In this document: one piece after another, positions 2,874 to 44,350 of the stretch
Position numbering within the stretch: the stretch's first letter is position 1
How the letters are laid out: every line of letters begins with the position of its first letter
From: an uncultured Atribacterota bacterium
GTDB lineage: Bacteria; Atribacterota; Phoenicimicrobiia; Phoenicimicrobiales; Phoenicimicrobiaceae
Direction of reading: 5' to 3'
Assembly: GCA_964632105.1 (NCBI GenBank)
Contig: CAZWFH010000001.1
Location: 1 to 50,043 of the forward strand
Length of the DNA stretch: 50,043 nt
The notes under the pieces: model-generated
What the model saw: only the letters and a program-made list of their open reading frames with translations
The model's database searches: none
What the model was told of the DNA's origin: nothing
Position numbers and translations under genes: made by a program

Positions 2874-3131
2874 ATGAATCAGACATTGATTATCCTGGCA
2901 ATTGCAGTAGCGTCGATTATCTCATATTTCTACCGGATAAGGAGTCGTAAGGGAGTGGGAAAACAACGCGCCTTATGGCAGGAATGCCGCCAAAAACTTC
3001 GACTTCCTCTAAAGGTCGCCGATGAAACCATTGAAAGGCATATAAAGAGCTTGAAAAAAAGCCATCCAAACCACCCAGAAGAATGGTACCTGGAAAAGAT
3101 TATTTATGATTTGGACAGGGATCGTAGATAA
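2874..3131 (+). CDS. Hypothetical small membrane-anchored protein
   Basis: 85 aa with RBS TAAGGAGG 7 nt upstream of the ATG. One N-terminal TM helix is followed by a charged soluble tail. Confidence 0.5.
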   Translation: MNQTLIILAIAVASIISYFYRIRSRKGVGKQRALWQECRQKLRLPLKVADETIERHIKSLKKSHPNHPEEWYLEKIIYDLDRDRR

Positions 3132-3154
3132 AAGTTCTTCTGAATCCTTCTTTT

Positions 3155-3754
3155 TCAACGTATATATGTAAACAATATCAGTCCTATTGAAGATAGAGAG
3201 ATTACCGAGGAAATAAACGCTACTATTAAATTGATCTTCTCCTCAACCATGGCAGCTACCGTAGTCCCTATTAATATGAAAACAATACAAAGTACCAGAA
3301 CTGTATTATAAAACCATTCCGGAGTCGAATGAATACAGTCTACGACGATTAGTGGATACCAGGGAGCCCATAGTGAGTAACCGGTCATGATGAGTAAAGC
3401 TTCGAATCTACCGTTTCCACCGAACTGCTTACATAAAATATGAAGTACACCTGTACCTAAGATCCACATCAGGAATACCAGGGGTAGGAGGTAGAAAGCC
3501 TGTACCAGGTAGTAAACATCTTCCGGTAACTTGATCCAGGGTTTCACAAATTGAATAAAACCTCTAAAGTACAACCAGAGTGATCCCATCACATAGATCA
3601 GGCAGTAGACCAGTACACAAAGCCAACTACTGCTCTTTCGTCCCTTAGATATTTCCATATAAAGAGATTTAGGTGAGTAAAAAACTCGAATGAAATCCTT
3701 ATAATGTATTCTTAGTTTCCCTGCCACTCTTATCACCCATCTTCCCTTTGGCAC
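3155..3754 (-). CDS. Yip1-like polytopic membrane protein
   Basis: 199 aa with about 5 TM helices after a short cytoplasmic N-terminus. The family assignment is tentative. Confidence 0.45.
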   Translation of the reverse strand: MPKGRWVIRVAGKLRIHYKDFIRVFYSPKSLYMEISKGRKSSSWLCVLVYCLIYVMGSLWLYFRGFIQFVKPWIKLPEDVYYLVQAFYLLPLVFLMWILGTGVLHILCKQFGGNGRFEALLIMTGYSLWAPWYPLIVVDCIHSTPEWFYNTVLVLCIVFILIGTTVAAMVEEKINLIVAFISSVISLSSIGLILFTYIR

Positions 3755-4624: not shown

Positions 4625-5558
4625 CTACAACCATTTTTTCTTCCTGAAAAAAATTAGCATTATAATACTTACGACTGCCATTATAAACAAAGCAGCAAAA
4701 TATCCCCAACAAAATTGAAGTTCTGGAATATAGAAGTTCATTCCATAAATGCCAGCAATAAAAGTTAAAGGAATAAATATAGTAGCTATTATGGTTAATA
4801 CTTTCATCACTTCATTCATTTTATTGCTAATACTTGAAAGATAAATATCAAGCATCCCAGAAATCATATCTCGGAATGTTTCTATTGTATCAATTACCTG
4901 AATGCTATGGTCGTAAACATCCCTTAGATATATACCGGTAGATTCTTCAATAAGCGATGATTCTGTTCTTTCTAAGCCGCTTATTATTTCTCTTAAAGGC
5001 CAAACTGATTTACGTAAAAATATCATGTCTCTTTTTAAGTTGTGAATTCCTTGTAAGGTATTTGGTGTAGGATTAGCTACTAATTTTTCCTCCATTTCCT
5101 CAATCTTTTCACCAGTTCCTTCTAAGATTACAAAATAGTTATCAACTATGGCATCTATTCAAGGTATATGCAAGATAATCAGCTCCTGATTTTCTCATTC
5201 TTCCCTTTCCTCTTCTAATTCTCTCTCTGATAGAATTGAAAACGTCACCTTCTCTCTCTTGAAAAGAAATAACGAAATTTAAACCAAGAATTAAGCTAAC
5301 TTGCTCGATCTCTATTTCACTCTTTTTTTCATTATAATAAATCATTTTCAAGATAATAAAGATATAATCTCCAAAATCTTCTATTTTGGGACGTTGATCA
5401 GTATTCATAATGTCTTCTAATAGAAGAGGGTGCAAACCTACATATTCTCCGATTTTTCCCATGATTTCAGCGTCGTGAATGCCATTTATGTTTATCCAGG
5501 TAACAGCGGGCTTATCCCCCAAAAGGAAAACATTCCTCCTGCACCTTGCACCTTGCAA
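4625..5558 (-). pseudogene. corA: Magnesium/cobalt transporter CorA, frameshifted and 5'-truncated
   Basis: The C-terminal ORF carries YGMNF and two TM helices. The N-terminal ORF carries VTWININGIHD...HPLLLEDI. Shifting frame near 5150 restores TL-IDAIVDNYFVILEGTGEKIEEMEEKL. About 45 N-terminal residues are missing, and the only 'start' is a TTG inside a TTGCAAGGTGCAAGG repeat word. Confidence 0.8.
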
Positions 5559-5621
5559 CCTGAAACTTACAGCTCTGACCTACACATACTAAATACTAAC
5601 GACCAACAACTGACGACTATT
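5540..5621. repeat. Mosaic word-repeat patch (CAAG words plus ACTAACGACCAAC words)
   Basis: CACCTTGCACCTTGCAACCTG and AAATACTAACGACCAACAACTGACGACTATTTTG. The latter is nearly identical to 38545-38577. Confidence 0.75.
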
Positions 5622-5951
5622 TTGCAAATTGATATCCACCGCCCGGATAGAATCATCTTTTTAAGAAAAGAAGTTAAACTAACTCCTACAGGATTTTCCT
5701 TGCTCTATCTTCTGGCTCAACATAGAGAAAAGGTAGTTAGTTATGAGGACATTTTAAAGGACTTGTGGAAGGGTGAAGAGGATGCAATTTACACCCGGAT
5801 AAATTATCATATGTGTAAAATTAGAAAAGATATTTCAAAAATAATGGATAAAAAAGAAGATAGCATAAAGAAGATTGAAAATATTTTTAAAGCAATCCCC
5901 GGCAGAGGTTTGATGTTAGACATTAAAGAAAGAGAATTAAAGTTAATTTAA
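5622..5951 (+). CDS. Stand-alone OmpR/PhoB-type winged-helix domain protein (possibly a regulator remnant)
   Basis: IDIHRPDRIIFLRKEVKLTPTGFSLLYLLAQHREKVVSYEDILKDLWKG...IPGRGLMLD fits the trans_reg_C pattern. There is no receiver domain, only a TTG start at 5622 and no clear RBS. The track ORF portion 5430-5621 is antisense to corA. Confidence 0.4.
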   Translation: MQIDIHRPDRIIFLRKEVKLTPTGFSLLYLLAQHREKVVSYEDILKDLWKGEEDAIYTRINYHMCKIRKDISKIMDKKEDSIKKIENIFKAIPGRGLMLDIKERELKLI

Positions 5952-5977
5952 AAGTTTAATTTCTCAATCCATATTTT

Positions 5978-6229
5978 TTATTTTTTTTCTTTATATTTTG
6001 AATATAGTTTACAAAACTCTTCTAAGCTTATCTCTAAATCTTCTCTGATTATTGTACGCAAAAGCCCTTTAGGTATATCTTTATTTTTATGAACGGGGAT
6101 AGTAGTCACTCTTTTTTGGTCTTCAGTTCTTAATCTTACATGGGAGCCCTTCGTTCTAACAATTTTAAAACCCAAAGATTGCAAAAATTTTATAAATTCC
6201 CTGCCTTTAATTGTGGGCAATTTATGCAT
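5978..6229 (-). CDS. hicA: HicA-family mRNA interferase toxin
   Basis: 83 aa. GREFIKFLQSLGFKIVRTKGSHVRL...IPVHKNKDIPKGLLRTIIREDL is a typical HicA signature. Confidence 0.85.
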   Translation of the reverse strand: MHKLPTIKGREFIKFLQSLGFKIVRTKGSHVRLRTEDQKRVTTIPVHKNKDIPKGLLRTIIREDLEISLEEFCKLYSKYKEKK

Positions 6230-6443
6230 TTTTAACTATTTCCAATTCTCTAAATCCTATAAATTTATTAATTTCTTCTACATCAGTTTCTTCAAGACAC
6301 ATCTGAATAACTTCTTTTATGTTTTCTAAAGCCTCATCAATAGTTCCGCCATAAGTATGACAGCCTTTAAATAAAGGACAACTTACAATATAATAACCAT
6401 CCTCATCAAGTTCAATAATTATGGGTAAATGTAATTTTTCCAT
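6222..6443 (-). CDS. hicB: HicB-family antitoxin (UPF0150 fold)
   Basis: Start at ATG 6443, preceded by AGGAGG. IIIELDEDGYYIVSCPLFKGCHTYGGTIDEALENIKEVIQMCLEE. Overlaps the hicA start by 8 nt. Confidence 0.8.
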   Translation of the reverse strand: MEKLHLPIIIELDEDGYYIVSCPLFKGCHTYGGTIDEALENIKEVIQMCLEETDVEEINKFIGFRELEIVKNA

Positions 6444-6552
6444 TTTCCTCCTCTTATTATAACAAGATAACACTTTTTTATTAATTATATCATAAAATCA
6501 AATATTTTATTTTCCAAAGTAAAACCATTTTATTCATAGATATTTCATCGGT

Positions 6553-6606
6553 AGAAATTCGGTTGAAATTCATTTGAAATTCAGTAGAAAACAAGGAGAA
6601 AACTCG
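6553..6606 (+). repeat. Five helically phased 11-bp direct repeats (iteron-like)
   Basis: AGAAATTCGGT TGAAATTCATT TGAAATTCAGT AGAAAACAAGG AGAAAACTCGA, about 80 bp upstream of the Rep-like gene. Confidence 0.55.
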
Positions 6607-6685
6607 ATACAGGAAAAATTTTTTATGATGTAATTATAGTGGTTGGCCAACCGATAATGACTATTTTCTACGAAGGAGAAAATCT

Positions 6686-7264
6686 ATGCAAAAAGAAAAA
6701 TTAAATAGACAAACCAAATCATCCAAAGAAGGTTATATCATTATGCCAAATAATTTTTTAGCAGAATGGATAAGGGTAATGGGTAAAGGTCCGGTTTTAC
6801 TCTATATCCAACTGCTTACCTATTGTCATAAAGAAAAAGATATAGCCTGGCCTGCACTGTCCACTTTAGGCGATAGTCTAAATATGTCCAAAAATAGTCT
6901 GATCAGTTATCAAAAAACTCTCCTTGAGTATGGCCTGATTAAAAAGATCACAGGAAGAAGAACTGCTCAGGGAAATTATCGGTCTAACCTCTATAAGGTT
7001 ACTCCTATAAGGAGTCCAAAAAATGGACCCGGCCAGGTCCAAAAAATGGACACGGGAAGTCCAAAAATTGCACTTGACCAGGTCCAAAATTTGCACCCTA
7101 ACAGTACTAATCTTAACATTACCAAATCAACAACAACAAATGGAGAAAATGTTGTTGTTAATTTTAAAAAATTAAAAGAGAAAGGAGAAGAAAAGATACT
7201 GGCAATTAGAGAACAGTTGATTAACTTAGATATTGAAGAAAGCTTAATTGAGAAATTGCTTTAA
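6686..7264 (+). CDS. Replication initiator-like winged-helix protein (phage O / DnaD-like organiser), ended by an in-frame TAA
   Basis: RBS GAAGGAGA. IMPNNFLAEWIRVMGKGPVLLYIQLLTYC...WPALSTLGDSLNMSKNSLISYQKTLLEYGLIKK fits the HTH_36-type Rep N-terminus. The ORF contains four internal iterons. Confidence 0.6.
   Translation: MQKEKLNRQTKSSKEGYIIMPNNFLAEWIRVMGKGPVLLYIQLLTYCHKEKDIAWPALSTLGDSLNMSKNSLISYQKTLLEYGLIKKITGRRTAQGNYRSNLYKVTPIRSPKNGPGQVQKMDTGSPKIALDQVQNLHPNSTNLNITKSTTTNGENVVVNFKKLKEKGEEKILAIREQLINLDIEESLIEKLL
7014..7096 (+). repeat. Four dyad-symmetric 15-bp iterons at 22-23 bp spacing inside the Rep-like ORF (candidate origin)
   Basis: GTCCAAAAAATGGAC at 7014 and 7037, GTCCAAAAATTGCAC at 7059, GTCCAAAATTTGCAC at 7082. 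An AT-rich stretch follows. Confidence 0.6.
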
Positions 7265-7591
7265 AACTATCCTGCTGAAAAGATCGAAGAGAAAATAGAC
7301 CTGCTTCTTATCAAGAGGAATATCCAAAGTCCCGCCGGCTGGCTGATGGCAGCACTTAAGAATGATTATCAGGATTTGGAACAGGAAGGATTTGATGAAG
7401 AACCTGTAGGAGGAAGCGAGGATCTCAAATGTAGGGGCACGATGCATCGTGCCCTCAACGAATCGGGACAGATAAATCCGTCCCCTACAGAAACAAAGAT
7501 AAACTCTGGAGATAATAAAAAAATCCTCTCCAGTGAAGAAGTAATAAGACGGTTTAAACTTCTAAGACAAGAATTAATGGCAATGAATTAA
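7265..7591 (+). pseudogene. In-frame continuation of the Rep-like gene (C-terminal domain), cut off by a TAA stop
   Basis: Same frame as 6686-7264. NYPAEKIEEKIDLLLIKRNIQSPAGWLMAALKNDYQ is a typical Rep/DnaD-like C-terminal motif. It also carries an in-frame palindromic insertion at 7430-7457. Confidence 0.45.
7430..7457. repeat. TGTAG-family palindromic hairpin (copy inside coding sequence)
   Basis: TGTAGGGGCACGATGCATCGTGCCCTCA. The core GGGCACGATGCATCGTGCCC is a perfect 20-nt palindrome. Confidence 0.8.
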
Positions 7592-7603: not shown

Positions 7604-7660
7604 TGTAGAGACACGGCGTGCCGTGTCTTCTTCTTCACCACGGCACGCCGTGGTGCTACA
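7604..7660. repeat. Compound double-hairpin repeat (type B), copy 1
   Basis: TGTAG-AGACACGGCGTGCCGTGTCT-TCTTCTT-CACCACGGCACGCCGTGGTG-CTACA. A near-identical copy lies at 9311-9367. Confidence 0.85.
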
Positions 7661-7707: not shown

Positions 7708-8022
7708 ATGTCCGAATTAAAAGAATTAATCGCTAAAGCCAAACAAAGAAACGTAAAAGCAATGGAGGAACTGTTCAACCAATTTAAACCTCTGTTGAAA
7801 TCAAGAGCCAGGAAGTATTCTCTATACGGTTTAGAATATGAGGATGTTTTTCAGCAGGCCGCCCTGCTCTTTATCCTGGCTGTTTACCATTATAAAGAAA
7901 AACCTCCTACTACCTTTGCCGGTTATATGAAAAAGAGAATCGACTGGGGATTGTGGGTCTATTATCGGGAATATCTTAAACAACAGATAGAAATATCCAG
8001 TGGCCTAAAAATAGGTGATTGA
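7708..8022 (+). CDS. Sigma-70 family region-2-only protein (RsoA-like half sigma)
   Basis: ATG 7708 follows AAAGGAG. ELFNQFKPLLKSRARKY...YEDVFQQAALLFILAVYHYKEKPPTTFAGYMKKRIDWGLWVYYRE fits sigma region 2.1-2.4. There is no region 4. The track ORF start at 7618 lies inside a hairpin repeat. Confidence 0.7.
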   Translation: MSELKELIAKAKQRNVKAMEELFNQFKPLLKSRARKYSLYGLEYEDVFQQAALLFILAVYHYKEKPPTTFAGYMKKRIDWGLWVYYREYLKQQIEISSGLKIGD

Positions 8023-8027
8023 GACTT

Positions 8028-8055
8028 GTAGGGGCGTATTGCCATACGCCCCTAC
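8028..8055. repeat. TGTAG-family palindromic hairpin in the sigma r2/r4 junction
   Basis: GTAGGGGCGTAT-TGCC-ATACGCCCCTAC: 12-bp arms and a 4-nt loop. Confidence 0.85.
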
Positions 8056-8075
8056 CAAATATCAGAAGGAGGATA

Positions 8076-8282
8076 ATGCTTTTGAGTAGATTAGAAAATA
8101 TCTTACTAAACAATAATTTAGAAGAAAATTATAATCTTTTGACTAAAAGAGAAAGAAAAATTATCAATTTGTATTATCTTGAGGGATATAAGGATAAAGA
8201 GATAGCAAAGATTTATGGTGTTTGCCAGCAATCGGTAAACGAAAGTCGTAAAAAAGGAATAAAAAAATTAAAATATTTTTAA
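8076..8282 (+). CDS. Sigma-70 family region-4-only protein (SigO-like half sigma)
   Basis: ATG 8076 follows AGGAGG (8067-8072). LTKRERKIINLYYLEGYKDKEIAKIYGVCQQSVNESRKKGIKKLK is a region 4.2 HTH. Confidence 0.7.
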   Translation: MLLSRLENILLNNNLEENYNLLTKRERKIINLYYLEGYKDKEIAKIYGVCQQSVNESRKKGIKKLKYF

Positions 8283-8437
8283 TTTTTTTTAAAACTACCC
8301 TGTAAAATCACCTCTTTTTTGCTCTTACTAAGTAGAGGAAGTTTTTAGCTATGCTAAAAACTGTGATGAGTAATAAGTAATGAGTGATAAGCCTAATTAT
8401 TTAAGTAATTGTATACTCATTACCTGTCACATATTAC

Positions 8438-8485: not shown

Positions 8486-8758
8486 ATGGCCAGCGAATTA
8501 GGAGAAGTAACCAGTTATAAGAGACTGTATATGCAGTTTAGAGATAGTGCAGCTAAAACCATAAATCTAACCTTGAATAATCCCAAGAACGTAGATGATG
8601 GAGACTATGCTGACTTTGCGGCACAAGATGTCGCTGTTGAAGGAGTGATGGATACTATCATCGCCAAGAACATCTTCCATAATGATGGTAATGACTTAGT
8701 AGCCAAAGTAAATGCAAGAATCCTTGATTATAAGTCTACTGATGTTATGGATGTGTAG
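8486..8758 (+). CDS. DUF2922/DUF1659-like small protein
   Basis: 90 aa with RBS GAAGGAGG and no signal peptide. The pattern YKRLYMQFRD...KTINLTLNNPK...MDTIIAKNIF...LVAKVNARIL resembles the small DUF1659/DUF2922 proteins that accompany YvrJ in Firmicutes. Confidence 0.4.
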   Translation: MASELGEVTSYKRLYMQFRDSAAKTINLTLNNPKNVDDGDYADFAAQDVAVEGVMDTIIAKNIFHNDGNDLVAKVNARILDYKSTDVMDV

Positions 8759-8760
8759 GA

Positions 8761-8790
8761 AATAATGGTTAACCATTATTTCCAGTTTTT
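8761..8790 (+). terminator. Putative intrinsic terminator
   Basis: The palindrome AATAATGGTTAACCATTATT is followed by TCCAGTTTTTT. Confidence 0.4.
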
Positions 8791-8809
8791 TGTTTATAGT
8801 TTTTAGTTT

Positions 8810-8837
8810 GTAGGGGCGTATAGCGATACGCCCCTAC
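8810..8837. repeat. TGTAG-family palindromic hairpin
   Basis: GTAGGGGCGTAT-AGCG-ATACGCCCCTAC. It differs from the 8028 copy only in the loop. Confidence 0.85.
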
Positions 8838-8910
8838 CACTTGCAACATGCAACCTGTATTTCTAATTGGTCAATCGGTAAATTAACAAACGAGTGAAAG
8901 GAGGAAATCC

Positions 8911-9291
8911 ATGTTAGAAGCAATATTAAGTAAGTATCTACTCAATGCCCTACTATTATCTCTCGTCTCTATCTTTTACAGTTTTCTAAAGAACAAATTA
9001 GGAGAAGACAGAGCAAGTACCATTAAAGAGGCTATTCTTGCTGCCATGCTCTGGGCTGAAGAAGAGCTGGGGATAGGAAATAGTAATCAGAAATGGGATA
9101 TAGCCTGGAAGAATTTAATAGAGATACTGGCTGATAAGAATATCAGTTTAAGAAAGAGCGAGGAGAAAACAGTAAATATGATGATGAAGGCCAATGTGGA
9201 CAGGATCAATCGGCAGACCTATGATGTCCTGTTGAAGAAGAAATTAATAAAAGATAAAGGCCCTATCCAGCAGTCACTGTTGATTAAATAA
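8911..9291 (+). CDS. Holin-like protein (LL-H-type pattern)
   Basis: 126 aa with RBS AAAGGAGG. An N-terminal TM helix is followed by AILAAMLWAEEELGIGNSNQKWDIAWKNLIEILADKNISL, which resembles LL-H family phage holins. It sits directly upstream of a peptidoglycan peptidase gene. Confidence 0.45.
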   Translation: MLEAILSKYLLNALLLSLVSIFYSFLKNKLGEDRASTIKEAILAAMLWAEEELGIGNSNQKWDIAWKNLIEILADKNISLRKSEEKTVNMMMKANVDRINRQTYDVLLKKKLIKDKGPIQQSLLIK

Positions 9292-9310
9292 CCTCTCGTG
9301 AGGAGGATTT

Positions 9311-9367
9311 TGTAGAGACACGGCGTGCCGTGTTTTCTTTTTCACCACGGCACGCTGTGGTGCTACA
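9311..9367. repeat. Compound double-hairpin repeat (type B), copy 2
   Basis: TGTAGAGACACGGCGTGCCGTGTTTTCTTTTTCACCACGGCACGCTGTGGTGCTACA. Confidence 0.85.
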
Positions 9368-9461
9368 CTCACTCCTTGCAACTCATATCTTGTATTTTAA
9401 TTGGTCAATCGGTAAATTAGTGAATTGGTCAATTAACTAACGACTGAAAGGAGTTTGTTCC

Positions 9462-9842
9462 ATGCAAATGTTAAATAGTATAAACAATATAAACATCGCT
9501 CCACACTTCAACTTATCTGAATTTGCCTGTCCCTACTGTAAGAGAATAATGTTACGTCCCCTTCTCTTAGAAAAATTAGAAAAACTAAGAAAGATAATTG
9601 AAAAACCGATTCACATCACTTCCGGATATCGCTGCTCGAGATATAACCATCAAATTGGAGGGGTAACAAACAGCTACCACTGTATCGGACTGGCAGCAGA
9701 TATTAAAGTAAAAGATATCAATCTGATTACCCTTTTGGAGATATGTGAGAATATAGATTTTACTGGAATCGGGTTTTATGAGAAGAAGAACTTCCTGCAT
9801 CTGGATGTGCGGCCTACCGAACGCACCCGCTGGAGGGAATAA
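9462..9842 (+). CDS. Peptidase M15A (Peptidase_M15_3) zinc cell-wall peptidase, endolysin-like, no signal peptide
   Basis: HFNLSEFAC...ITSGYRCSRYNHQIGGVTNSYHCIGLAADI...FLHLDVR supplies the H/D/H zinc ligands of the LAS/M15 fold. Confidence 0.8.
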   Translation: MQMLNSINNINIAPHFNLSEFACPYCKRIMLRPLLLEKLEKLRKIIEKPIHITSGYRCSRYNHQIGGVTNSYHCIGLAADIKVKDINLITLLEICENIDFTGIGFYEKKNFLHLDVRPTERTRWRE

Positions 9843-9843
9843 A

Positions 9844-9884
9844 AAGTTGCCCAAAGGTGCCTGGCACCTTTGGGCAACTTTTTG
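9844..9884 (+). terminator. Strong stem-loop with T-run
   Basis: AAGTTGCCCAAAGGTGCC-T-GGCACCTTTGGGCAACTT followed by TTT. It ends 17 nt before the next start codon. Confidence 0.7.
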
Positions 9885-9900
9885 AGAAAGGAGTGAAGTA

Positions 9901-10170
9901 ATGGATGTTAAAACATTGTCTGAAGTGATCGCTAATCAGGGCTTCCCTATCGCCTTATCGATACTCTTAATCTTTCGCATCGATAGATTTATGCAGGAGA
10001 TAGTAACTGCCCAGAAAGATGGTTATCGTCAAATATTAGAAAATACTAAAGAGATACATAATACAATCACTAGCTTAAACCAGCAAAATCGAGAATACTA
10101 TTCGTTGCGCTTTTCGGAAGTGCAGAAAGAACTCTCCGGAATGAAGATAGAGTTGGGAAAAATTGAATAG
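9901..10170 (+). CDS. YvrJ-like small membrane protein
   Basis: VIANQGFPIALSILLIFRIDRFMQEI matches the YvrJ-family core (N-GFPI-hydrophobic-LL-R-I/E). RBS AAAGGAG. Confidence 0.45.
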   Translation: MDVKTLSEVIANQGFPIALSILLIFRIDRFMQEIVTAQKDGYRQILENTKEIHNTITSLNQQNREYYSLRFSEVQKELSGMKIELGKIE

Positions 10171-10192
10171 AAATAAAAATGCAATAAAATCA

Positions 10193-10243
10193 GGGTAAGC
10201 TATAAAAAAATTAGCGTCTTTTCTTTAGCTTACCCTTTTTTTA
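10193..10243 (+). terminator. Putative terminator closing the island
   Basis: GGGTAAGCTA...TAGCTTACCC followed by TTTTTTT. The loop is long. Confidence 0.5.
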
Positions 10244-10426
10244 TTTTGTCATCAAATTTGCCAATATGTAACTACCTTATAACTATATTTCAAATCATAA
10301 TATAAATTAAGATAAATCCCTTGAGTCTTAGAAATAATTTTAAAAATTTAGCGAATAGATAATATGATTTATATACTGATAGTTAATAATCTAATCTCTC
10401 TTTTCTAAATAATTACAGTCACAGTT

Positions 10427-11323: not shown

Positions 11324-12534
11324 ATAACTACCTCTCTCAATTTTTGATCATTTTTGATATCTTTTATCATATCTTTCCATAATAAGCGAATTTTAAAATA
11401 TTCTGGAACTAACTTTTTTGCCCTTTCTTTGGCATAATTAATAAACTCTCGGGCTTCCTTTTCAGGTTCTGTTTCAGCTATGTTTTTATCAGATAAGACC
11501 TTTGCAAGTTTCTCCTCTGAATCAGAAAAAACTTTACCCTCGAAAAAACTACCCGGATATGGCATTAATTCCTCAATATCTATATTATTTAAATTATTAT
11601 ATTTTTTTACTTGCTCAATTTTTTCTTTTTCATAAATAAATCGCAAGATATCTTGTTTTAGTTGGGAAATATTAGCTCCATTATGGGTATTTTTATAATC
11701 AGGTTGCAAATGAGTTATATTTAATTCTTTATCTAAAAAGAAATTAAGCCCTTCCATTTTTGCATTTATTAAATAATCAATATCTTCTCCTCTGGTATTG
11801 TAGGGGTCAAAAGATATTCTTTCTATAGTTGTGCGGGGAAATACCATATTTCCACCAAAGACTACAGGGGTTTTAACCAAACGCCCCTCTGTATGGTCTA
11901 ATCTATCATAGGTTAAATCCATAATGTAAGATTTTTTGTCAAAGAGATTTTCTAATTTCTCTTGTCCCTCAACTTTTAATCTATGATTCCCTTCTCTATC
12001 TAAATAGTAGCCAGCTACTCCTGCTATAAAATCTCCTTTGTATTCTTTCCCCACATATTCAGCTGCTTTATATAAATAATTACTATCATTAATTACTTCA
12101 TCATCATCAATGCCAACAACCACATCACTATTATTAATATAAGACACAATCAATTGTAAGTTTCTTATATTATTATAATTTTCCAGGTTAATCTCTTGTA
12201 AAATCTTGTAATGCCCAAGTTCAAATAATCTTTCTCTCAATATCTTTAATTTACTATAGGAAAAATGTTTTATCCCAAATTTATTCTTAAACTTATCAAT
12301 GATTCCCTGAACTCTTTTCTCTACTTTTTCCGCAATCTCCACATTTGTGGAAGCTGTTATTACCAAAATATTAAAATTAGGATAATTTATCTTCCTAAAA
12401 CTTTCCAATGTTCTGGCTAATGTTCCATCTAAATCAAGGGGAGTTGGATGATCGAAAATGAAACTCTCCCTCTTACTCTTAATATCGGTAGGCCAGGTCC
12501 AATAAGTCGGTATAACTACAGTTACTTTCTGCAT
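11320..12534 (-). CDS. GT-A fold glycosyltransferase-like protein (family uncertain)
   Basis: 404 aa. VVIPTYW at the N-terminus, DxD-like GIDDDEV, GGNMVF and RGEDIDY. Overlaps the downstream GH130 start by 4 nt. Confidence 0.4.
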   Translation of the reverse strand: MQKVTVVIPTYWTWPTDIKSKRESFIFDHPTPLDLDGTLARTLESFRKINYPNFNILVITASTNVEIAEKVEKRVQGIIDKFKNKFGIKHFSYSKLKILRERLFELGHYKILQEINLENYNNIRNLQLIVSYINNSDVVVGIDDDEVINDSNYLYKAAEYVGKEYKGDFIAGVAGYYLDREGNHRLKVEGQEKLENLFDKKSYIMDLTYDRLDHTEGRLVKTPVVFGGNMVFPRTTIERISFDPYNTRGEDIDYLINAKMEGLNFFLDKELNITHLQPDYKNTHNGANISQLKQDILRFIYEKEKIEQVKKYNNLNNIDIEELMPYPGSFFEGKVFSDSEEKLAKVLSDKNIAETEPEKEAREFINYAKERAKKLVPEYFKIRLLWKDMIKDIKNDQKLREVVI

Positions 12535-26240: not shown

Positions 26241-27230
26241 TGTATCGAGTATCGAGTTAAGAAAGAGAAAGAAAAGAAAAGAAATTAAAAAAACAGTATT
26301 GTAGCAGATGTATCGTTAAGAAAGAAAAACAATAATACTGTATTAAGTATATAATATCGAGTTAAGAAGATAAAATTCGTATCTCGTATATAGTATCGAG
26401 TATCGAGTATCGTGTATCGAGTCAAGAAAGAAAAAGAAAAGAAATAAAAAACAGTATTGCACTAAATATATTGTATTAAGTATATAATATCGAGTTAAGA
26501 AGATAAAATTCGTATCTCGTATCTCGTGAATCGTATCTCGCAAAGATAATAAAAACTAAGAATCAGAATAAATTTCTATTGCATATATAGTATATAGTAT
26601 CGAGTAACGTGTATCGTGTATCGTGTAAAGAAAGAGAAAGAAAAGAGATTAAAAAACAATATAGTACCAAATGTATCGTCAAGAAAGAGAAAGAAAAAAA
26701 CCATTCTACTTTTTATCTACCTCAATAAAGTTTATATCAGAAAATTGTCTTTTACAATTATCTTATTCGATAGAATAGGCAAAAATCCTTCTTTAATTAT
26801 ATATGATGATTTAAAAATTACAACATTAGACAAAAAAAGTATTATATAGTATCGAGTTAAGAAAGAGAAAGAAAAAAAATTAAAAGACAGTATCGTGCCA
26901 AATATATCGTTGAGGAAGAGAAAGAAAAATACTATTCTGCTTTTTATCTAAAAACTATAAACTAAAAACTAAAAACTTGTATTTATACTAACGACTAATT
27001 TAACCGGCAAACTGGTTAACCAGGTAACTGGATAACTAATATCCTATACGCTAAACGCTGATTAAATACTATCGACTATTTTAATTGGCAAATTTTTGTA
27101 TCTTGCATATTGTGGTTTTAATTGGTGAATTGGTAAATTGGTCAATTAATTTATTTTCTTTCCCTTTCTTAACTCGATACTATATACTCAATACTCGATA
27201 CTGTTTTTTAAATCGGTAAATTAATTACAA
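26241..27230. repeat. ~1 kb mosaic word-repeat array (four ~100-nt U units, two ~50-nt V units, then a chain of 7-8-nt tandem words)
   Basis: U copies start near 26241, 26391, 26587 and 26844 ((GTATCGA)n-AAGAAAGAGAAAGAAAAG-AAAAAACAGTAT...). V copies lie at 26339-26390 and 26471-26522. Words at 26945-27215: CTAAAAA, ACTAACGAC, CCAGTT/AACTGG, TACGCTAAACGC, AATTGGTN. An inverted U-type end lies at 27150-27208. Confidence 0.85.
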
Positions 27231-30964: not shown

Positions 30965-31137
30965 TAAATTAATTTACCAATTTACCGATTAGTCGATAGT
31001 ATTTAATTAGCGTATAGCGTACAGCGGGTAGCGTATAGGCACGGGGAACAATTGCGGGAAAAAATACGAATACTAAAGACGCAAAAATTTCCCACAGTCT
31101 GCCCGTAGGACAGGCGTCTCGCCTGTCTAAAGTAAAT
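30965..31137. repeat. Mosaic word-repeat patch plus hairpins downstream of clpB
   Basis: TTACCAATTTACCGATT; GTCGATAGTATTT; AGCGTATAGCGTACAGCGGGTAGCGTATAGG; hairpin GACAGGCG-TCTC-GCCTGTC. Confidence 0.75.
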
Positions 31138-38109: not shown

Positions 38110-38183
38110 AGAATTTTTGACTTTTTCTAATATATATGTTATCTTATTAAAAATTTAATATTTGTACCTCACTTTTTTCTTAA

Positions 38184-38368
38184 GTGAGGTGGAGGCGCGA
38201 GCAATAATCAGTACTGGTGATGAGATGAGCATCTTTGATTCGCCAGGAAAGGCATTCTCGCCGAAGCGTTAAAGATAACAGCTCTAATCTTTATGCTGGG
38301 TTTATGGTTAAAAGCCATAAGACTGTCATCAGAATCTATACCCTGGTTTCTGATGGAGCGCTATCTCA
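38184..38368 (+). promoter_or_regulatory. Lysine riboswitch (L-box) aptamer
   Basis: Conserved blocks in order: GGAGGCGCGAGC, GGAAAGGC, TCGCCGAAGCG, CTGGG, GACTGTCA, TGGAGCGCTATC. P1 pairs TGAGGT (38184-38189) with ATCTCA (38363-38368). It lies upstream of lysA. Confidence 0.85.
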
Positions 38369-38413
38369 TCTGATGAGAGAAATGGGAGTAAATTTAATTG
38401 TTAGATTAATTTC

Positions 38414-38589: not shown

Positions 38590-39927
38590 ATGAATAATCA
38601 AAACAATATAACACCTCGAATTAATCGAGAAGGTCTTTCCCTAAATAAATCTGGAAATTTAGAATTCGACCGATGTGAGCTTGTAAAATTAGCCCAAAAA
38701 TATGGAACCCCCTGTTATATTTTTTCGGAAAGTATAATTAGAAAAAAATGTCGGCAATATACTTCTGCTTTTTCTAAAAGAAACATTGATTTTGAAATAA
38801 TTTATGCTGGTAAAGCCTTTTTGGTTAAAGCAATGTGTAATGTCTTAAAGGAAGAGGATTTAAGTCTGGATGTTTCTTCTGGCGGAGAATTATATACTGC
38901 CCTTTCAGTAGGATTCCCACCGGAAAAAATATTTTTCCATGGGAATAACAAATCCAAAAAAGAAATAGAATTCTCTCTTAAAGAAAAAATTGGCACCATG
39001 ATGGTAGATAGTGAGTATGAACTCAACGTAATTAGCCAGGTTGCAGAAAGTTTAAATACGAAGGTGGAAATAATTCTCCGGGTAACTCCGGGAATAGATA
39101 CTCATACTCATAAATATATTCAAACCGGACAGGTAGATTCAAAATTTGGAATCAGTATTGATAGTATCCCTGATTTCATAAAAAAAGTTCTTTCTATGAA
39201 AAATATTTCATATAAGGGTCTGCATTTTCATCTCGGTTCACAAATTTTTGATCTATTTCCTTATGTCCTAGCTATCAAGGAAATGGCAAAACTTATTAAG
39301 CAAATAAAAGATCTTTGGGGAATAGATACCCCTAATCTAAATTTGGGTGGAGGTTTAGGGGTGAAATACCTTGAATCTGATCAACCTCCTTCCGTAGAAT
39401 ATTTTGTAAATTTAATTGTTGATAATCTTGCAAAAGAAATAAAAGAAAATAATTTAGTAATGCCTAAGATATTGATAGAACCAGGAAGGTCTATAGTGGC
39501 GGAAGCAGGCATTACTCTCTATACTATCGGTAACATAAAAGAAATACCGGGAATTAGAAAATACCTTATTGTAGATGGAGGTATGGCTGATAATCCTCGA
39601 CCAATCCTTTATCAAGCAAAATATGAAGCTGTTTTAGTAAATAAAGTAAATGATAATCTTCCTAAGGAATTGGTAACTATTGCCGGGAAATGTTGTGAAT
39701 CAGGAGATATTTTAATAAAAAATTTGAAACTTCCTTCAGCTTCACCGGGGGATCTTTTAGCAGTATTTACCACTGGGGCTTATCATTATTCTATGTCCAG
39801 CAATTATAACCGACTTCCCCGGCCAGCGGTCGTCCTGGTAAATCAAGGAAAAGATGGTTTAATGGTAAAAAAAGAAACTTATAGTGATATTGTAAGAAAC
39901 GATACCATACCAGAGTGGTTTAAATAA
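38590..39927 (+). CDS. lysA: Diaminopimelate decarboxylase
   Basis: 445 aa. YAGKAF (PLP lysine), HFHLGSQ, EPGRSIVA, CESGD and AYHYSMSSNYN are typical LysA blocks. Confidence 0.9.
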   Translation: MNNQNNITPRINREGLSLNKSGNLEFDRCELVKLAQKYGTPCYIFSESIIRKKCRQYTSAFSKRNIDFEIIYAGKAFLVKAMCNVLKEEDLSLDVSSGGELYTALSVGFPPEKIFFHGNNKSKKEIEFSLKEKIGTMMVDSEYELNVISQVAESLNTKVEIILRVTPGIDTHTHKYIQTGQVDSKFGISIDSIPDFIKKVLSMKNISYKGLHFHLGSQIFDLFPYVLAIKEMAKLIKQIKDLWGIDTPNLNLGGGLGVKYLESDQPPSVEYFVNLIVDNLAKEIKENNLVMPKILIEPGRSIVAEAGITLYTIGNIKEIPGIRKYLIVDGGMADNPRPILYQAKYEAVLVNKVNDNLPKELVTIAGKCCESGDILIKNLKLPSASPGDLLAVFTTGAYHYSMSSNYNRLPRPAVVLVNQGKDGLMVKKETYSDIVRNDTIPEWFK

Positions 39928-43425: not shown

Positions 43426-44286
43426 ATGAAAATTGATTTTGTAAAAATGCATGGATTAGGGAATGATTTTATTTTAATCGATTGTATAAATAAATCATTG
43501 GGTGACTCTTTATTTCTCTCTTATCTGGCAAAAAAACTTTGCAACCGTAACTTTGGAATTGGTGCAGATGGACTAATACTTATCTTGCCCTCATCTAAGG
43601 CAGATTTAAAAATGAGAATTTTTAACTATGATGGTAGCGAAGCCCAGATGTGTGGAAATGGAATTAGATGTTTTGCTAAATATGCCTATGAAAATAATTT
43701 AATTTCAAAAAATAAATTTGCTGTAGAAACCTTAGCAGGTATAATCACTCCTGAACTAATTTTTCAAAATTTAAAAGATAAAAAAGTTTTAAGAATCAAA
43801 GTAAATATGGGAACCCCAAAATTAAGAAGAAGAGAAATACCTATGACCGGTGAAGATACTCCCACAGTAGTGGATGAAACATTGAAGATAAATTCCGAGC
43901 AGACTTTTAAAGTCACCTGTGTCTCTATGGGAAACCCTCATTGTATAGTCTTTGTAGATGATGTACAATCTATACCAGTAGATAAAATTGGCCCAAAAAT
44001 TGAAAATCATCCCCTCTTCCCTGAAAAAACTAACGTAGAATTTATTCAAGTTATAAATAAGAAAGAGATAAACTTCAGAGTATGGGAAAGAGGAGTAGGA
44101 GAAACTTTGGCTTGCGGAACCGGAGCATGTGCAGCTTTGATAGCTGCAGTTTTGAATAAAAAGACCGATCGGAAAGCTACAATTCATTTATCTGGTGGAG
44201 ATTTAGATATCCTATGGGCTGATGATGGATATGTCTATATGACTGGCCCAGCAGAATTAGTATTCAAGGGAGAAATAATTATTTAA
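43426..44286 (+). CDS. dapF: Diaminopimelate epimerase
   Basis: KMHGLGNDF, MCGNGIRC and ACGTGACA (the two catalytic cysteines). Confidence 0.9.
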   Translation: MKIDFVKMHGLGNDFILIDCINKSLGDSLFLSYLAKKLCNRNFGIGADGLILILPSSKADLKMRIFNYDGSEAQMCGNGIRCFAKYAYENNLISKNKFAVETLAGIITPELIFQNLKDKKVLRIKVNMGTPKLRRREIPMTGEDTPTVVDETLKINSEQTFKVTCVSMGNPHCIVFVDDVQSIPVDKIGPKIENHPLFPEKTNVEFIQVINKKEINFRVWERGVGETLACGTGACAALIAAVLNKKTDRKATIHLSGGDLDILWADDGYVYMTGPAELVFKGEIII

Positions 44287-44350
44287 TTGACCAATTCACC
44301 AATTAATTTTAGTTAGCCAGTTTGCCGGTTAACCAGTTTACCAGTCGAAT
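44287..44350. repeat. Word-repeat patch (CCAATT/CCAGTT words) between dapF and dapL
   Basis: TTGACCAATTCACCAATTAATTTTAGTTAGCCAGTTTGCCGGTTAACCAGTTTACCAGTCG. Confidence 0.8.

Follow-up and report, generated by a model that had tools for sequence, protein, structure and literature searches.

A conserved Atribacterota gene cassette with the layout of a phage lysis module: candidate machinery for protein release or programmed lysis

What does a gene string resembling a phage lysis module do behind a sigma factor of its own, with no virion genes beside it? The question was raised by an earlier note on the window (the whole stretch of DNA analysed here, 50,043 nucleotides), which had proposed holin/endopeptidase export or programmed lysis. 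The source organism is an Atribacterota bacterium of marine or subsurface sediment. The four open reading frames of the cassette, all on the + strand, were found where the note had placed them, and the split sigma factor directly 5' of them consists of two separate genes:

7708..8022, + strand: sigma subunit with region 2 only, 104 aa (Pfam Sigma70_r2, 24.9 bits, cut-off 24)
8076..8282, + strand: sigma subunit with region 4 only, 68 aa (Pfam Sigma70_r4_2, 8.8e-9)
8486..8758, + strand: DUF2922 protein gene (Pfam PF11148, 58.1 bits against a cut-off of 25.5)
8911..9291, + strand: LL-H-type holin-like protein gene (Pfam, PHROGs, hydropathy, AlphaFold2)
9462..9842, + strand: gene for a predicted M15A (Peptidase_M15_3) zinc peptidoglycan peptidase, 126 aa, single domain
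9901..10170, + strand: YvrJ-like single-pass membrane protein gene (Pfam YvrJ, PF12841, 20.5 bits, cut-off 29.5)

Pfam annotation was run on all four cassette products and placed DUF2922 and Peptidase_M15_3 above their cut-offs. The peptidase scored 84.5 bits with Peptidase_M15_3 (cut-off 23.2) and matched phrog_894, annotated 'endolysin', in PHROGs (E 1.6e-35). It aligned with the M15A holotype 1LBU across the SxHxxGxAxD motif, and the zinc ligands H72, D79 and H113 (H-x6-D plus a C-terminal H) were identical in 23 of 24 cassette copies, the sole exception (L027) being a frameshifted M15 copy. Peptidoglycan is the predicted substrate. By hydropathy the peptidase has no hydrophobic N-terminus and no signal peptide. 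Intact zinc ligands together with a missing export signal count in favour of release or lysis; cytoplasmic enzymes such as VanX belong to the wider M15 family, however, so the missing signal peptide is no proof that the peptidase needs export.

The holin-like protein scored 24.4 bits with Phage_holin_6_1 (Holin_LLH, PF09682, holin superfamily VI; cut-off 24.9, E 3.9e-5) and matched phrog_6918 'holin' (E 2.4e-6). Precomputed PF09682 matches exist for many homologues 84-92% identical to it, more distant relatives scored above the cut-off (27.0, 31.9 and 27.4 bits), and a Caldatribacterium homologue from the same gene neighbourhood scored 48.8 bits. Hydropathy windows above the cut-off covered residues 1-23, a single N-terminal transmembrane segment; the AlphaFold2 model (pLDDT 76) has a helix at residues 2-30 and then three further helices, and an invariant WAEEELGIG motif lies within this three-helix domain. 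A BFVD structure search with the model returned top matches named Holin or LL-H family, all with E>1e-3, and no PDB sequence relatives of the protein were found. The Pfam score just below the cut-off and the weak structural matches count against release or lysis. The LL-H family is named holin mainly on gene position. In the window the next gene 3' is that of the M15 peptidase, and in the second form of the cassette (type 2, described below) the holin stop abuts the M15 start codon, which counts for release or lysis. We regard the LL-H-type protein as a candidate holin, predicted from its sequence. Two giant proteins among the representative matches (P0260 and P0261) are repeat-rich surface proteins and were taken as spurious.

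The YvrJ-like protein has one transmembrane segment (residues 9-27 by hydropathy) and a coiled-coil-like C-terminal tail. Its motif ANxGFPxxLS is invariant in both cassette types, a homologue (L081) is on record as a weak PF12841 match, and the type 2 homologue matches phrog_4898 'holin', as does the YvrJ of Geobacillus. BLASTP produced no alignment between the window protein and Geobacillus YvrJ; by eye, the hydrophobic core motif GFPxxLS seems common to the two. The cassette contains no lipoprotein-type reading frame, and the YvrJ-like protein matched no spanin family in Pfam or PHROGs. That three of the proteins resemble phage lysis families is a further argument for release or lysis.

The DUF2922 protein is small and acidic (pI 4.45), without a hydrophobic N-terminus or signal peptide by hydropathy. 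Its gene is preceded by a perfect Shine-Dalgarno sequence (AAGGAGGTGA) and has the lowest dN/dS of the cassette, 0.059. The AlphaFold2 model (pLDDT 85.8) shows a beta-beta-alpha-beta fold for which there was no match at E<=0.001 in the PDB (best E 0.46) or in BFVD (best E 7.8e-3, an uncharacterised protein), and no PDB sequence relatives were found. Atribacterota members differ from those of Bacillota by a 9-residue insert and an N-terminal extension. The usual partner of DUF2922, a DUF1659 (PF07872) gene, is absent 5' of DUF2922 in the window and in near-identical strain copies and present in 20 other compared loci. Because the DUF1659 leader is joined straight to the DUF2922 leader in the window sequence, we infer that the gene was deleted there. 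The earlier description of the locus was incomplete in this respect, and the absence counts against a release function. Profile-profile comparison gave no sign that the two DUF families are paralogues (probability 0.3%).

The earlier description had also left out decayed replication genes upstream (5430-7591), which form part of the locus:

5430..5951, + strand: helicase remnant, C-terminal Trans_reg_C winged-helix part only (Pfam Trans_reg_C, E 8.9e-13)
5978..6473, - strand: hicA/hicB toxin-antitoxin pair (Pfam HicA_toxin, E 2.8e-20)
6686..7591, + strand: DnaD/lambda-O-like replication-initiator pseudogene (HTH_36; PHROGs)

The helicase remnant is 49% identical to residues 756-891 of an intact 892-aa ResIII/DEAD helicase in another locus (L007), and the hicA/hicB pair has been inserted between it and the initiator-like gene; HicB_lk_antitox is recorded for the corresponding gene in L003. 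In PHROGs the initiator-like gene matched a DnaD-like helicase loader (8.9e-13) and a replication initiation protein (7e-11). It is interrupted by an in-frame TAA at 7262-7264, which falls at a Lys of the uninterrupted 298-aa frame of L007, and by a GC hairpin inserted at 7430-7489; iterons of 22-23 bp (family D2) lie within it at 7013-7096. Both sigma genes and all four cassette genes have stayed intact in the window, in contrast to these decayed replication genes and the deleted DUF1659 gene.

Comparison across genomes, which the earlier note had suggested, confirmed that the genes occur together. The window holds DUF2922, LL-H-type holin-like, M15A peptidase and YvrJ-like genes; the full order, DUF1659-DUF2922-holin-M15-YvrJ, was constant in more than 30 loci from two classes of Atribacterota, the highest copy number being four, in a single-cell genome (SAG AAA255-G05). 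Two forms were distinguished. Type 1, the form of the window, comes with a replication module of phage/plasmid type (helicase and DnaD/O-like initiator with iterons) as well as the split sigma. In type 2 the genes form a compact operon behind a sigma-70-like promoter, with no sigma gene nearby; this operon is situated between housekeeping genes and has no replication or mobility genes. The small proteins are 80-90% identical between the two types, whereas the holin and peptidase have drifted to about 50%, a pattern that would be unusual for secreted effectors and counts against release. All cassette genes showed dN/dS of 0.06-0.24, indicating purifying selection, at a dS of about 1 with synonymous sites near saturation. 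These ratios, together with 1172 homologues of the holin-like protein, place the cassette reading frames far beyond chance, and the constant order in two classes under such selection speaks for a release or lysis function.

The same data bear on whether the genes are what remains, without function, of an old prophage's lysis cassette. Although its proteins resemble phage lysis proteins and the adjoining replication genes are decayed in the window, the selection analysis already contradicts this reading, as do the constant order across two classes with several copies per genome, the best 120 of the 1172 holin-like homologues (all at least 84% identical) and the low frequency of frameshifted M15 copies (1 in 24). 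We consider it scarcely credible.

Prophage embedding had been set beforehand as a finding that would speak against a release system. The cassette genes were not embedded in prophages: tblastn with the holin-like and DUF2922 proteins gave no match in 50,697 phage records, and two IMG/VR scans were empty, so a prophage origin of the locus was rejected. The absence of virion genes claimed earlier held for the annotated parts of the window and around cassette copies elsewhere; the surroundings of each inspected copy, out to about 10 kb, held no gene for a capsid, portal, terminase or tail protein. Chromosomal neighbours vary by locus, and about 15 inspected contexts were housekeeping genes or toxin-antitoxin islands. 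The lack of phage and IMG/VR relatives and of nearby virion genes argues for a release system that does not belong to a phage.

Alternatively, lysis and its regulation might be the cassette's contribution to a mobile element without virions (a satellite or integrated plasmid). Such an element would replicate with a helicase and initiator of its own and lyse its host to escape, perhaps in the particles of a helper phage, and the cassette would serve it rather than the cell. In type 1 loci a sigma factor does accompany a helicase and a DnaD/O-like initiator with iterons; their flanks vary from genome to genome, often with many toxin-antitoxin genes, the L007 island has fragments of yvrJ-like genes on its flanks, a LexA/S24-type gene lies upstream in L078, and the Geobacillus versions are plasmid-borne beside integrase genes. 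We nevertheless think this improbable, since no integrase was found beside the inspected type 1 loci and no packaging or virion genes were seen, type 2 copies sit between housekeeping genes without replication or mobility genes, the replication genes of the window are dead while its cassette is intact, and a dS of about 1 under strong purifying selection points to long-term retention.

Islands rich in toxin-antitoxin genes, where the cassette lies in some genomes, also bring to mind abortive-infection defence, in which phage attack would trigger the sigma factor or a sensor, and the cell would be killed early by the holin and peptidase. The parts would be capable of suicide, and the helicase resembles HamB-type DEAD-box helicases of Hachiman. 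PADLOC models, however, matched none of the four cassette proteins, which led us to reject a known defence system, and the similarity of the helicase is of a generic kind. Rapid evolution and a patchy distribution are usual for defence genes, whereas the cassette is lineage-wide and highly conserved, and type 2 copies lie outside toxin-antitoxin islands. We judge defence highly improbable.

Related gene sets in other lineages also bear on release or lysis. The hot-spring loci L062-L064 belong to Caldatribacterium, of the same phylum, where holin, peptidase and small proteins are associated through non-orthologous parts; an LL-H gene lies there among housekeeping genes, near ftsEX and an M23 peptidase gene. 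Plasmids of Geobacillus and Parageobacillus carry an independent analogue, annotated and uncharacterised, in the order ComK-like, DUF1659, DUF2922, YvrJ, M15 (VanY type), integrase; 11 of 11 Geobacillus-type metagenome loci fit this layout as far as their contigs extend. Its YvrJ matched phrog_4898 'holin' (3.4e-5) and its signal-less peptidase matched endolysin PHROGs (1.7e-46). The analogue has in common with the cassette the small-protein pair and, 3' of it, genes for a small single-pass protein and a LAS peptidase without signal peptide, and it too is non-phage. It differs in that its peptidase comes from a different M15 subfamily (VanY/M15_4), it lacks an LL-H-type protein, a ComK-like regulator stands beside it where the window has a sigma factor, and YvrJ lies 5' of the peptidase gene instead of 3' as in Atribacterota. 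This independent assembly counts for release or lysis.

Control of the cassette differs between its two types. In every type 1 locus covering that part the sigma halves were separate, with spacing that ranged from an overlap to about 350 nt, and in the window the region-4 gene has its own Shine-Dalgarno sequence (GAAGGAGGA, 6 nt 5' of the ATG). The region-2 gene matched phrog_351 sigma factor (4e-9; dN/dS 0.09), the region-4 gene scored 43.3 bits with TIGR02937 against 42.9 (dN/dS 0.24), and region-4-only sigma reading frames are present in Caldatribacterium too. NCBIfam returned generic sigma-70/ECF matches, with nothing pointing to the TcdR/UviA group. No sigma-70-like site was found 5' of the four window genes, and no convincing -35/-10 pair could be derived as a shared promoter motif for the split sigma; type 2 copies, which have no sigma gene, carry a conserved TTGACT-N17-TGnTAATAT. 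A sigma-70-like promoter in the sigma-less form and the lack of such a site in the window count for release or lysis as the best explanation. The strong housekeeping-type promoter of type 2 also counts against it, since constitutive holin and endolysin would be lethal unless gated or non-lytic. Repeated CTTGCAAC and AATTGGT-type tandem repeats and a palindrome are visible ahead of ribosome-binding sites.

The closest precedent for the split sigma, absent from the earlier note, is SigO-RsoA of B. subtilis. In gene layout both have sigma regions 2 and 4 divided between the products of adjacent genes, with a YvrJ-family gene nearby, and yvrJ is within the SigO-RsoA regulon (PMC8103513). They differ in that the B. 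subtilis regulon is centred on oxalate decarboxylase and acid stress. They also differ in gene order, which is region 2 then region 4 in the window and sigO (region 4) then rsoA in B. subtilis. We know of no holin, M15 peptidase or DUF pair in the B. subtilis regulon.

Three terminator-like structures punctuate the cassette:

8758..8783, + strand: intrinsic-terminator-like hairpin directly 3' of DUF2922, an 11-bp stem followed by AGTTTTTTGT
9841..9883, no strand assigned: perfect 21-bp inverted repeat (I4) between the M15 and yvrJ-like genes, 100% complementary
10183..10245, + strand: terminator-like inverted repeat (I3) closing the cassette, 27-nt arms, 85% complementary

The hairpin after DUF2922 has a folding energy of -14.3 kcal/mol (z -4.4). 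Every locus examined had a hairpin or terminator between the DUF2922 and holin genes, formed by at least four unrelated sequences across the loci, and we count this recurrence for release or lysis. In colicin operons the lysis protein is kept scarce by a terminator placed before its gene. The repeat between the M15 and yvrJ-like genes, which includes a terminator-like site at 9858-9876, looks like a bidirectional terminator.

Taken together, these results point to a conserved, multi-copy cassette whose make-up is that of a phage lysis module and which may serve protein release or programmed lysis. The parts list of the earlier note proved real (a dedicated sigma, holin-like membrane proteins, a signal-less LAS-type peptidase and signal-less small proteins, all in a non-phage setting), and the release or lysis that it had proposed is partly supported, by those parts, by the non-phage context and by recurrence with non-orthologous parts. 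Our tentative view, held at a little under an even chance, is that the Atribacterota cassette is a phage-derived but non-phage holin/endolysin system for release or lysis. On this view the type 1 form of the window would have arrived attached to a phage/plasmid-type replication module and a two-subunit sigma; the replication genes have since decayed, and selection would have kept the sigma and the cassette. In such a system the region-2 and region-4 proteins would act jointly to bring RNA polymerase to the cassette. Its small acidic protein or proteins would be made in excess, aided by the perfect ribosome-binding site, and the hairpin or terminator after DUF2922 would let only a fraction of transcripts reach the genes for the membrane proteins and the peptidase. 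The signal-less peptidase would then cross the cytoplasmic membrane with the help of the single-pass proteins of LL-H and YvrJ type and may cut peptidoglycan stem peptides; local opening of the wall, or lysis of a subpopulation of cells, would release cytoplasmic products, for which the DUF1659/DUF2922 proteins would be the best candidates.

That last step is where a different reading enters. In S. aureus, SroA and SroB (DUF1659/DUF2922) are reported to be intracellular modulators of sigS mRNA stability (bioRxiv 10.1101/2022.10.19.512975). The loci are alike in having DUF1659 and DUF2922 in tandem, driven in S. aureus by the atypical sigma SigS; they differ in that the reported function is control of mRNA stability and that no membrane protein or peptidase partner is described in the preprint. 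By analogy, the report points to regulators rather than cargo for the DUF pair, and action inside the cell counts against a cargo role. With yvrJ placed in the SigO-RsoA regulon as well, the earlier statement that no function is known for DUF2922, DUF1659 or YvrJ is partly outdated. The cassette might then be a sigma-controlled envelope or stress module without cargo, in which the DUF pair would regulate the sigma factor by feedback from within the cytoplasm, the peptidase and membrane proteins would remodel peptidoglycan or process a precursor, and nothing would be released. The relation of SroA/SroB to SigS and the control of yvrJ by SigO-RsoA (PMC8103513) fit this reading, as do the very strong conservation of the DUF pair, its standing as an invariant core often found without any holin or peptidase (in Clostridium, Lactobacillus and other loci), and the Caldatribacterium LL-H gene near ftsEX and the M23 peptidase gene. 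Against it, type 2 keeps the pair with no sigma factor nearby, a signal-less peptidase acting on peptidoglycan still needs a route across the membrane, and the recruitment of two M15 subfamilies and two holin-like families beside the pair fits lysis or export better than a metabolic step. We find this alternative doubtful, though it deserves to be taken seriously.

Release or lysis has known parallels. The type 10 systems (the Serratia ChiW holin with the ChiX L-Ala-D-Glu endopeptidase, and those of Salmonella and Yersinia entomophaga) likewise use holin/endolysin pairs of phage origin outside prophages, a likeness seen here by homology and context, and place a signal-less zinc LAS-type endopeptidase beside a holin-like protein with a further small membrane protein (PMC9527704; PMC10847048). 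The known systems differ in being proteobacterial, with large identified cargo (chitinases, toxins), whereas the candidate cargo in Atribacterota is only a protein pair of 8-10 kDa. Spanin-like components, part of several described systems, have no lipoprotein counterpart in the cassette; its holin families are of the LL-H and YvrJ types, its control lies with a two-gene sigma or a housekeeping-type promoter, and there are several copies per genome. A sigma factor, holin, endolysin and signal-less product are also the layout of the large clostridial toxin and Bcn5 loci, namely the C. difficile PaLoc (TcdR/TcdE/TcdL) and C. perfringens UviA/UviB-Bcn5, which share with the cassette an alternative sigma, a holin, a peptidoglycan hydrolase or fragment and signal-less products, and some of which are plasmid-borne (PMC9527704). 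The Atribacterota sigma differs in being split into two proteins, the holin families differ, and the candidate cargo is tiny and highly conserved, neither toxin nor bacteriocin. A broader proposal, which we think unlikely, is that DUF1659/DUF2922 are the cargo or timing switch of an ancient holin/endopeptidase release machine common to Atribacterota and Bacillota, forming with YvrJ and a branch of 'LL-H holins' a cellular, non-viral pathway of type-10-like secretion or programmed lysis. In Atribacterota a two-subunit sigma would switch this pathway, with several copies in each genome, and regulated lysis or release would then be a routine trait of a lineage that is among the most abundant bacteria of subseafloor sediment.

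If release or lysis is confirmed, DUF1659, DUF2922 and YvrJ would gain their first functional context, that of holin/endolysin-type release, and type-10-like systems would extend past proteobacterial pathogens and clostridial toxin loci to environmental anaerobes and to plasmids of thermophilic bacilli. The split sigma would be a second natural example of a sigma factor made of two polypeptides. Atribacterota, which dominate many deep marine sediments, would hold several copies of a gated wall-opening device; given that dominance, such a device would matter for how cells turn over and release their contents in those sediments. The Parageobacillus plasmid version would offer a genetically tractable model for the idea.

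One further family of structures is spread through the locus:

7604..7660, + strand: GC-rich TGTAG...CTACA hairpin element, with a second copy at 9311-9367

Related single GC hairpins lie at 8028-8055 and 8810-8837, the latter after the terminator-like hairpin of DUF2922, and the insertion at 7430-7489 is a variant. The TGTAG...CTACA hairpins occur nowhere else in the 50-kb window, with none expected by chance. Rfam, which matched only a lysine riboswitch in the whole window, assigned none of them to a known RNA family. Their folding energies were -22 to -39 kcal/mol (z -4.6 to -7.3), and three other loci (L007, L010 and L012) hold the same GC hairpin elements at other intergenic positions.

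All four open reading frames that the earlier note had called at 8486-10170 were recovered on the + strand with the same coordinates. The split sigma factor placed directly upstream of them was also borne out, with regions 2 and 4 (104 and 68 aa) encoded by separate genes. The features are as follows.

7708-8022, sigma region 2 gene, directly upstream of the cassette, own ribosome-binding site
8076-8282, sigma region 4 gene, directly upstream of the cassette, own ribosome-binding site
8486-8758, + strand, DUF2922 gene (Pfam, 58.1 bits against a cut-off of 25.5)
8911-9291, + strand, LL-H holin-like gene (Holin_LLH, also Phage_holin_6_1, 24.4 bits against 24.9, E 3.9e-5)
9462-9842, + strand, M15 peptidase gene (Peptidase_M15_3, 84.5 bits)
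9901-10170, + strand, YvrJ-like gene (YvrJ, 20.5 bits against 29.5, below threshold)

Among PHROGs, the peptidase matched phrog_894 'endolysin' (1.6e-35), and its SxHxxGxAxD motif aligns with the M15A holotype 1LBU. The holin-like protein matched phrog_6918 'holin' (2.4e-6); with a family score below the cut-off, its assignment as a holin is marginal. By hydropathy, the holin-like and YvrJ-like proteins each have a single membrane segment at the N-terminus, and the DUF2922 protein and the peptidase begin without a hydrophobic stretch, in agreement with the earlier view that the latter two lack a signal peptide.

Mapping by tblastn of nine query proteins against all loci revealed one fixed gene order: DUF1659, DUF2922, holin-like, M15 and YvrJ-like. 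Upstream of this cassette in type 1, the form found in the window, come genes for a large ResIII/DEAD helicase that has a winged helix at its C-terminus and for a DnaD/lambda-O-like initiator (HTH_36), and then the two sigma genes. Type 2 is a compact operon in which the M15 start codon abuts the holin stop codon; its copies lack the sigma and replication genes and are flanked by ordinary genes, as at the type 2 locus L037 (TRAP transporter and cupin genes on one side, IclR and KDPG aldolase on the other). Identity of type 2 proteins to those of the window was ~50% for the holin, ~50% for the peptidase and ~36% for the YvrJ-like protein; DUF1659 and DUF2922 remain 80-90% identical to type 1. 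The sequence TTGACT-N17-TGnTAATAT is conserved ~60 nt 5' of DUF1659 in type 2, and no sigma-70-like site was found upstream of any of the four window genes. One single-cell genome, AAA255-G05, carries four copies on different contigs, one of type 1 and three of type 2. Every cassette gene is under purifying selection (median dN/dS 0.06-0.24, dS ~1), with the lowest value for DUF2922.

The DUF2922 protein was modeled confidently (pLDDT 85.8) as two long strands followed by a helix and a third long strand, and neither the PDB nor BFVD yielded a significant relative. The model of the holin-like protein (pLDDT 76) has a membrane helix and a three-helix domain; its top BFVD matches bear the names holin or LL-H holin, none of them statistically significant. 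Between types 1 and 2, the most conserved stretch of this protein, KEAILAAMLWAEEELGIGNG, is virtually unchanged. The DUF pair shows a comparable level of conservation, and the stretch may be a contact surface.

The DUF pair also occurs with other partners. Plasmid tblastn hits of DUF2922 were weak, and all fell on genes annotated DUF2922. On Geobacillus and Parageobacillus plasmids the order is ComK-like, DUF1659, DUF2922, YvrJ (48-49 aa), a VanY-type M15 peptidase without a signal and a small integrase, and all 11 of the 11 Geobacillus-type metagenome loci fit this layout as far as the contigs reach. The Geobacillus peptidase matched endolysin PHROGs at 1.7e-46 and the Geobacillus YvrJ matched phrog_4898 'holin' (3.4e-5), to which the YvrJ-like protein of Atribacterota type 2 also has a weak match (0.004). 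In Caldatribacterium, the thermophilic class of Atribacterota, region-4-only sigma ORFs are followed by the DUF1659-DUF2922 pair, then by a membrane protein of 72 aa and another protein of 179 aa, and finally by an unambiguous Holin_LLH (48.8 bits). Clostridium-type and Lactobacillus loci carry the DUF pair without holin or peptidase partners, often doubled and beside a tyrosine recombinase. Since the same pair is found with varied partners, the DUF pair is the core, to which lineages attached different holin-like proteins and LAS peptidases. In our view, such non-orthologous partner replacement is the strongest argument for a functional pairing.

Several of these loci have further features. 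The Clostridium-type loci L043, L048 and L065-L070 have a tandem-duplicated DUF1659-DUF2922 with an adjacent divergent tyrosine recombinase and without YvrJ or peptidase; a short integrase also closes the Geobacillus cassettes, so that the link to recombinases recurs. In Ca. Caldatribacterium saccharofermentans (CP187957.1, locus L085), a two-gene unit at 9465-10306 encodes the 179-aa protein and an LL-H holin. This unit lies among housekeeping genes, with an FGGY kinase gene on one side and gltX on the other, and ftsEX, an M23 peptidase gene and ctpB within a few kilobases. No DUF1659 or DUF2922 genes were called near it, and its 179-aa protein had no family match. In L062-L064 the gene for this same protein separates the DUF pair from the holin.

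The earlier note had seen no virion genes near the cassette, and the annotated parts of the window indeed hold housekeeping genes only (spermidine synthase, CorA, GH130, LacI, ABC transporters, ClpB and others). The pattern it had set against its own reading, the same genes always lying within prophages, was not found. The holin-like and DUF2922 proteins had no tblastn match among 50,697 phage records, two scans of IMG/VR gave none, and in ~15 other contexts the cassette lies among housekeeping genes or in toxin-antitoxin islands, and none of these contexts contains a capsid, portal, terminase or tail gene. Prophage membership was rejected on these grounds. PADLOC defence models had no match to the cassette proteins, and abortive infection is in our estimate a very unlikely role.

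The window copy of the island is damaged. Of the helicase only the final ~170 codons remain (5430-5951), a hicAB pair is inserted at 5978-6473, and the initiator-like gene is interrupted both by a GC hairpin insertion and by an in-frame TAA at 7262-7264, where the type 1 locus L007 has a lysine codon. DUF1659 is missing and its leader is joined straight to the near-identical DUF2922 leader, from which we infer a deletion between leader repeats. Both sigma genes and all four cassette genes are intact. That the replication part decayed while sigma and cassette were kept argues that the latter matter to the cell, or at any rate to selection. We consider it highly improbable that the locus is a dead remnant, and rather unlikely that it serves a virion-less mobile element.

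Other irregularities were noted around the island. At its left edge corA (- strand) is split into ORFs 4625-5095 and 5142-5558, reflecting pseudogenization or misassembly, and the island ORF starting at 5430 overlaps the 5' end of corA. Window positions 8000-8290 differ from L001 and from L003 (3085-3400), on contigs otherwise 98.7% identical: sharp divergence affects the last part of the region-2 gene and the hairpin after it, and the region-4 proteins (76% amino-acid identity) differ in the recognition helix. The pattern resembles gene conversion with another copy of the cassette as donor; such a change might alter promoter specificity. In L007, yvrJ-like fragments 83-95% identical to the window protein (1856-1969, 3086-3256 and 12215-12304) lie on either side of an intact type 1 island with toxin-antitoxin genes between, which suggests that insertion or recombination has recurred here.

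A sigma factor, a holin-like protein, a signal-less peptidase and small proteins in a non-phage setting lead us to favour a gated holin/endopeptidase system, and we tentatively read the cassette as serving release or subpopulation lysis. In type 1 loci, the two-subunit sigma factor would switch this system. The same set of parts has been described for type 10 secretion, for the large clostridial toxin loci and for the UviA/UviB-Bcn5 loci (PMC9527704; PMC10847048). For the split sigma the nearest precedent is SigO-RsoA of B. subtilis, whose regulon includes yvrJ (PMC8103513). Other points cut against release. The holin assignment is marginal, and the housekeeping-type promoter on type 2 rules out an ungated lethal cassette. 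The M15 family takes in cytoplasmic enzymes, and the DUF1659/DUF2922 pair of S. aureus (SroA/SroB) is reported to be intracellular and to act on sigS mRNA. The main rival seems to us unlikely, though less so than the other alternatives: under it, the locus would be an envelope module linked to the sigma factor, the DUF pair would act as regulators, and there would be no release.

Expression signals bear on the release reading. The window DUF2922 gene has a perfect Shine-Dalgarno sequence and a terminator-like hairpin directly 3' (8758-8783), and a stable hairpin or canonical terminator occupies the DUF2922-holin interval in every other locus folded, in at least four unrelated sequences. This arrangement predicts that far more of the small proteins would be made than of holin and peptidase. 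In colicin operons, a terminator ahead of the lysis gene gives the same imbalance.

Five GC-rich TGTAG...CTACA hairpins (7430-7489, 7604-7660, 8028-8055, 8810-8837 and 9311-9367; -22 to -39 kcal/mol) are confined within the 50-kb window to the cassette locus; one of them interrupts the dead initiator gene, and another separates the sigma genes. They occupy other intergenic positions in L007, L010 and L012, spacers are far shorter in compact loci such as L078, and the hairpins behave like small mobile insertions. Tandem repeats of an AATTGGT(N)-type heptamer or octamer lie just 5' of the holin and M15 ribosome-binding sites (8864-8885 and 9398-9453), with similar runs elsewhere in the window at 27119-27140, 30970-30991 and 44284-44305. 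In related loci, the positions immediately 5' of cassette-gene ribosome-binding sites carry short tandem repeats of other sequence (ACTCATT, AAAACT, CTTGCAA) and also the palindrome GCAATTAACC-N4-GGTTAATTGC.

Identical copies of the window holin-like protein were present on JGI metagenome contigs. A GTDB scan for this protein, with one genome per species, gave 30 loci, mostly in Atribacterota MAGs and single-cell genomes; the remainder were mostly short contigs in bins assigned to other phyla, which we read as mis-binned. Databases contain 1172 homologues, with identity of at least 84% in all of the best 120, few of which bear a source name; those named are marine-sediment or subsurface metagenomes. 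Clustering at 50% left only 23 representatives among 1.84 billion proteins, so that the family is narrow yet very abundant. Among the papers searched, none described the cassette, and just one, an unrelated review, mentioned Atribacteria together with holin. Non-phage holin/endolysin systems are a known kind; new here are the phylum, the split sigma factor, the multiple copies per genome and the link to three families of unknown function.

In five type 2 loci, among those compared, a ~1.4 kb conserved non-coding element lies 1-7 kb 5' of the cassette in two blocks (74-84% identity, GC 38%); the others had no match.

Blocks of the ~1.4 kb element in type 2 loci
L037: 1226-1856 and 2234-2610
L039: 5265-5896 and 7655-8064
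L032: 4991-5545 and 6464-6869
L031: 1-582 and 1006-1388
L026: 1-360 and 1748-2152

The element has long invariant G/C-rich stretches, no long ORFs and no Rfam match, and could be a large unknown RNA. Riboswitches lie just 3' of two type 2 cassettes (L039, 11511-11910; L031, 4951-5038): c-di-GMP-I at both, and a tandem glycine riboswitch at L039, where both lie ahead of the gene for a 1108-aa protein that carries Ig-like (He_PIG) domains. In the window, a lysine riboswitch at 38182-38371 (109.9 bits), unrelated to the cassette, lies ahead of the ORF at 38590-39927.
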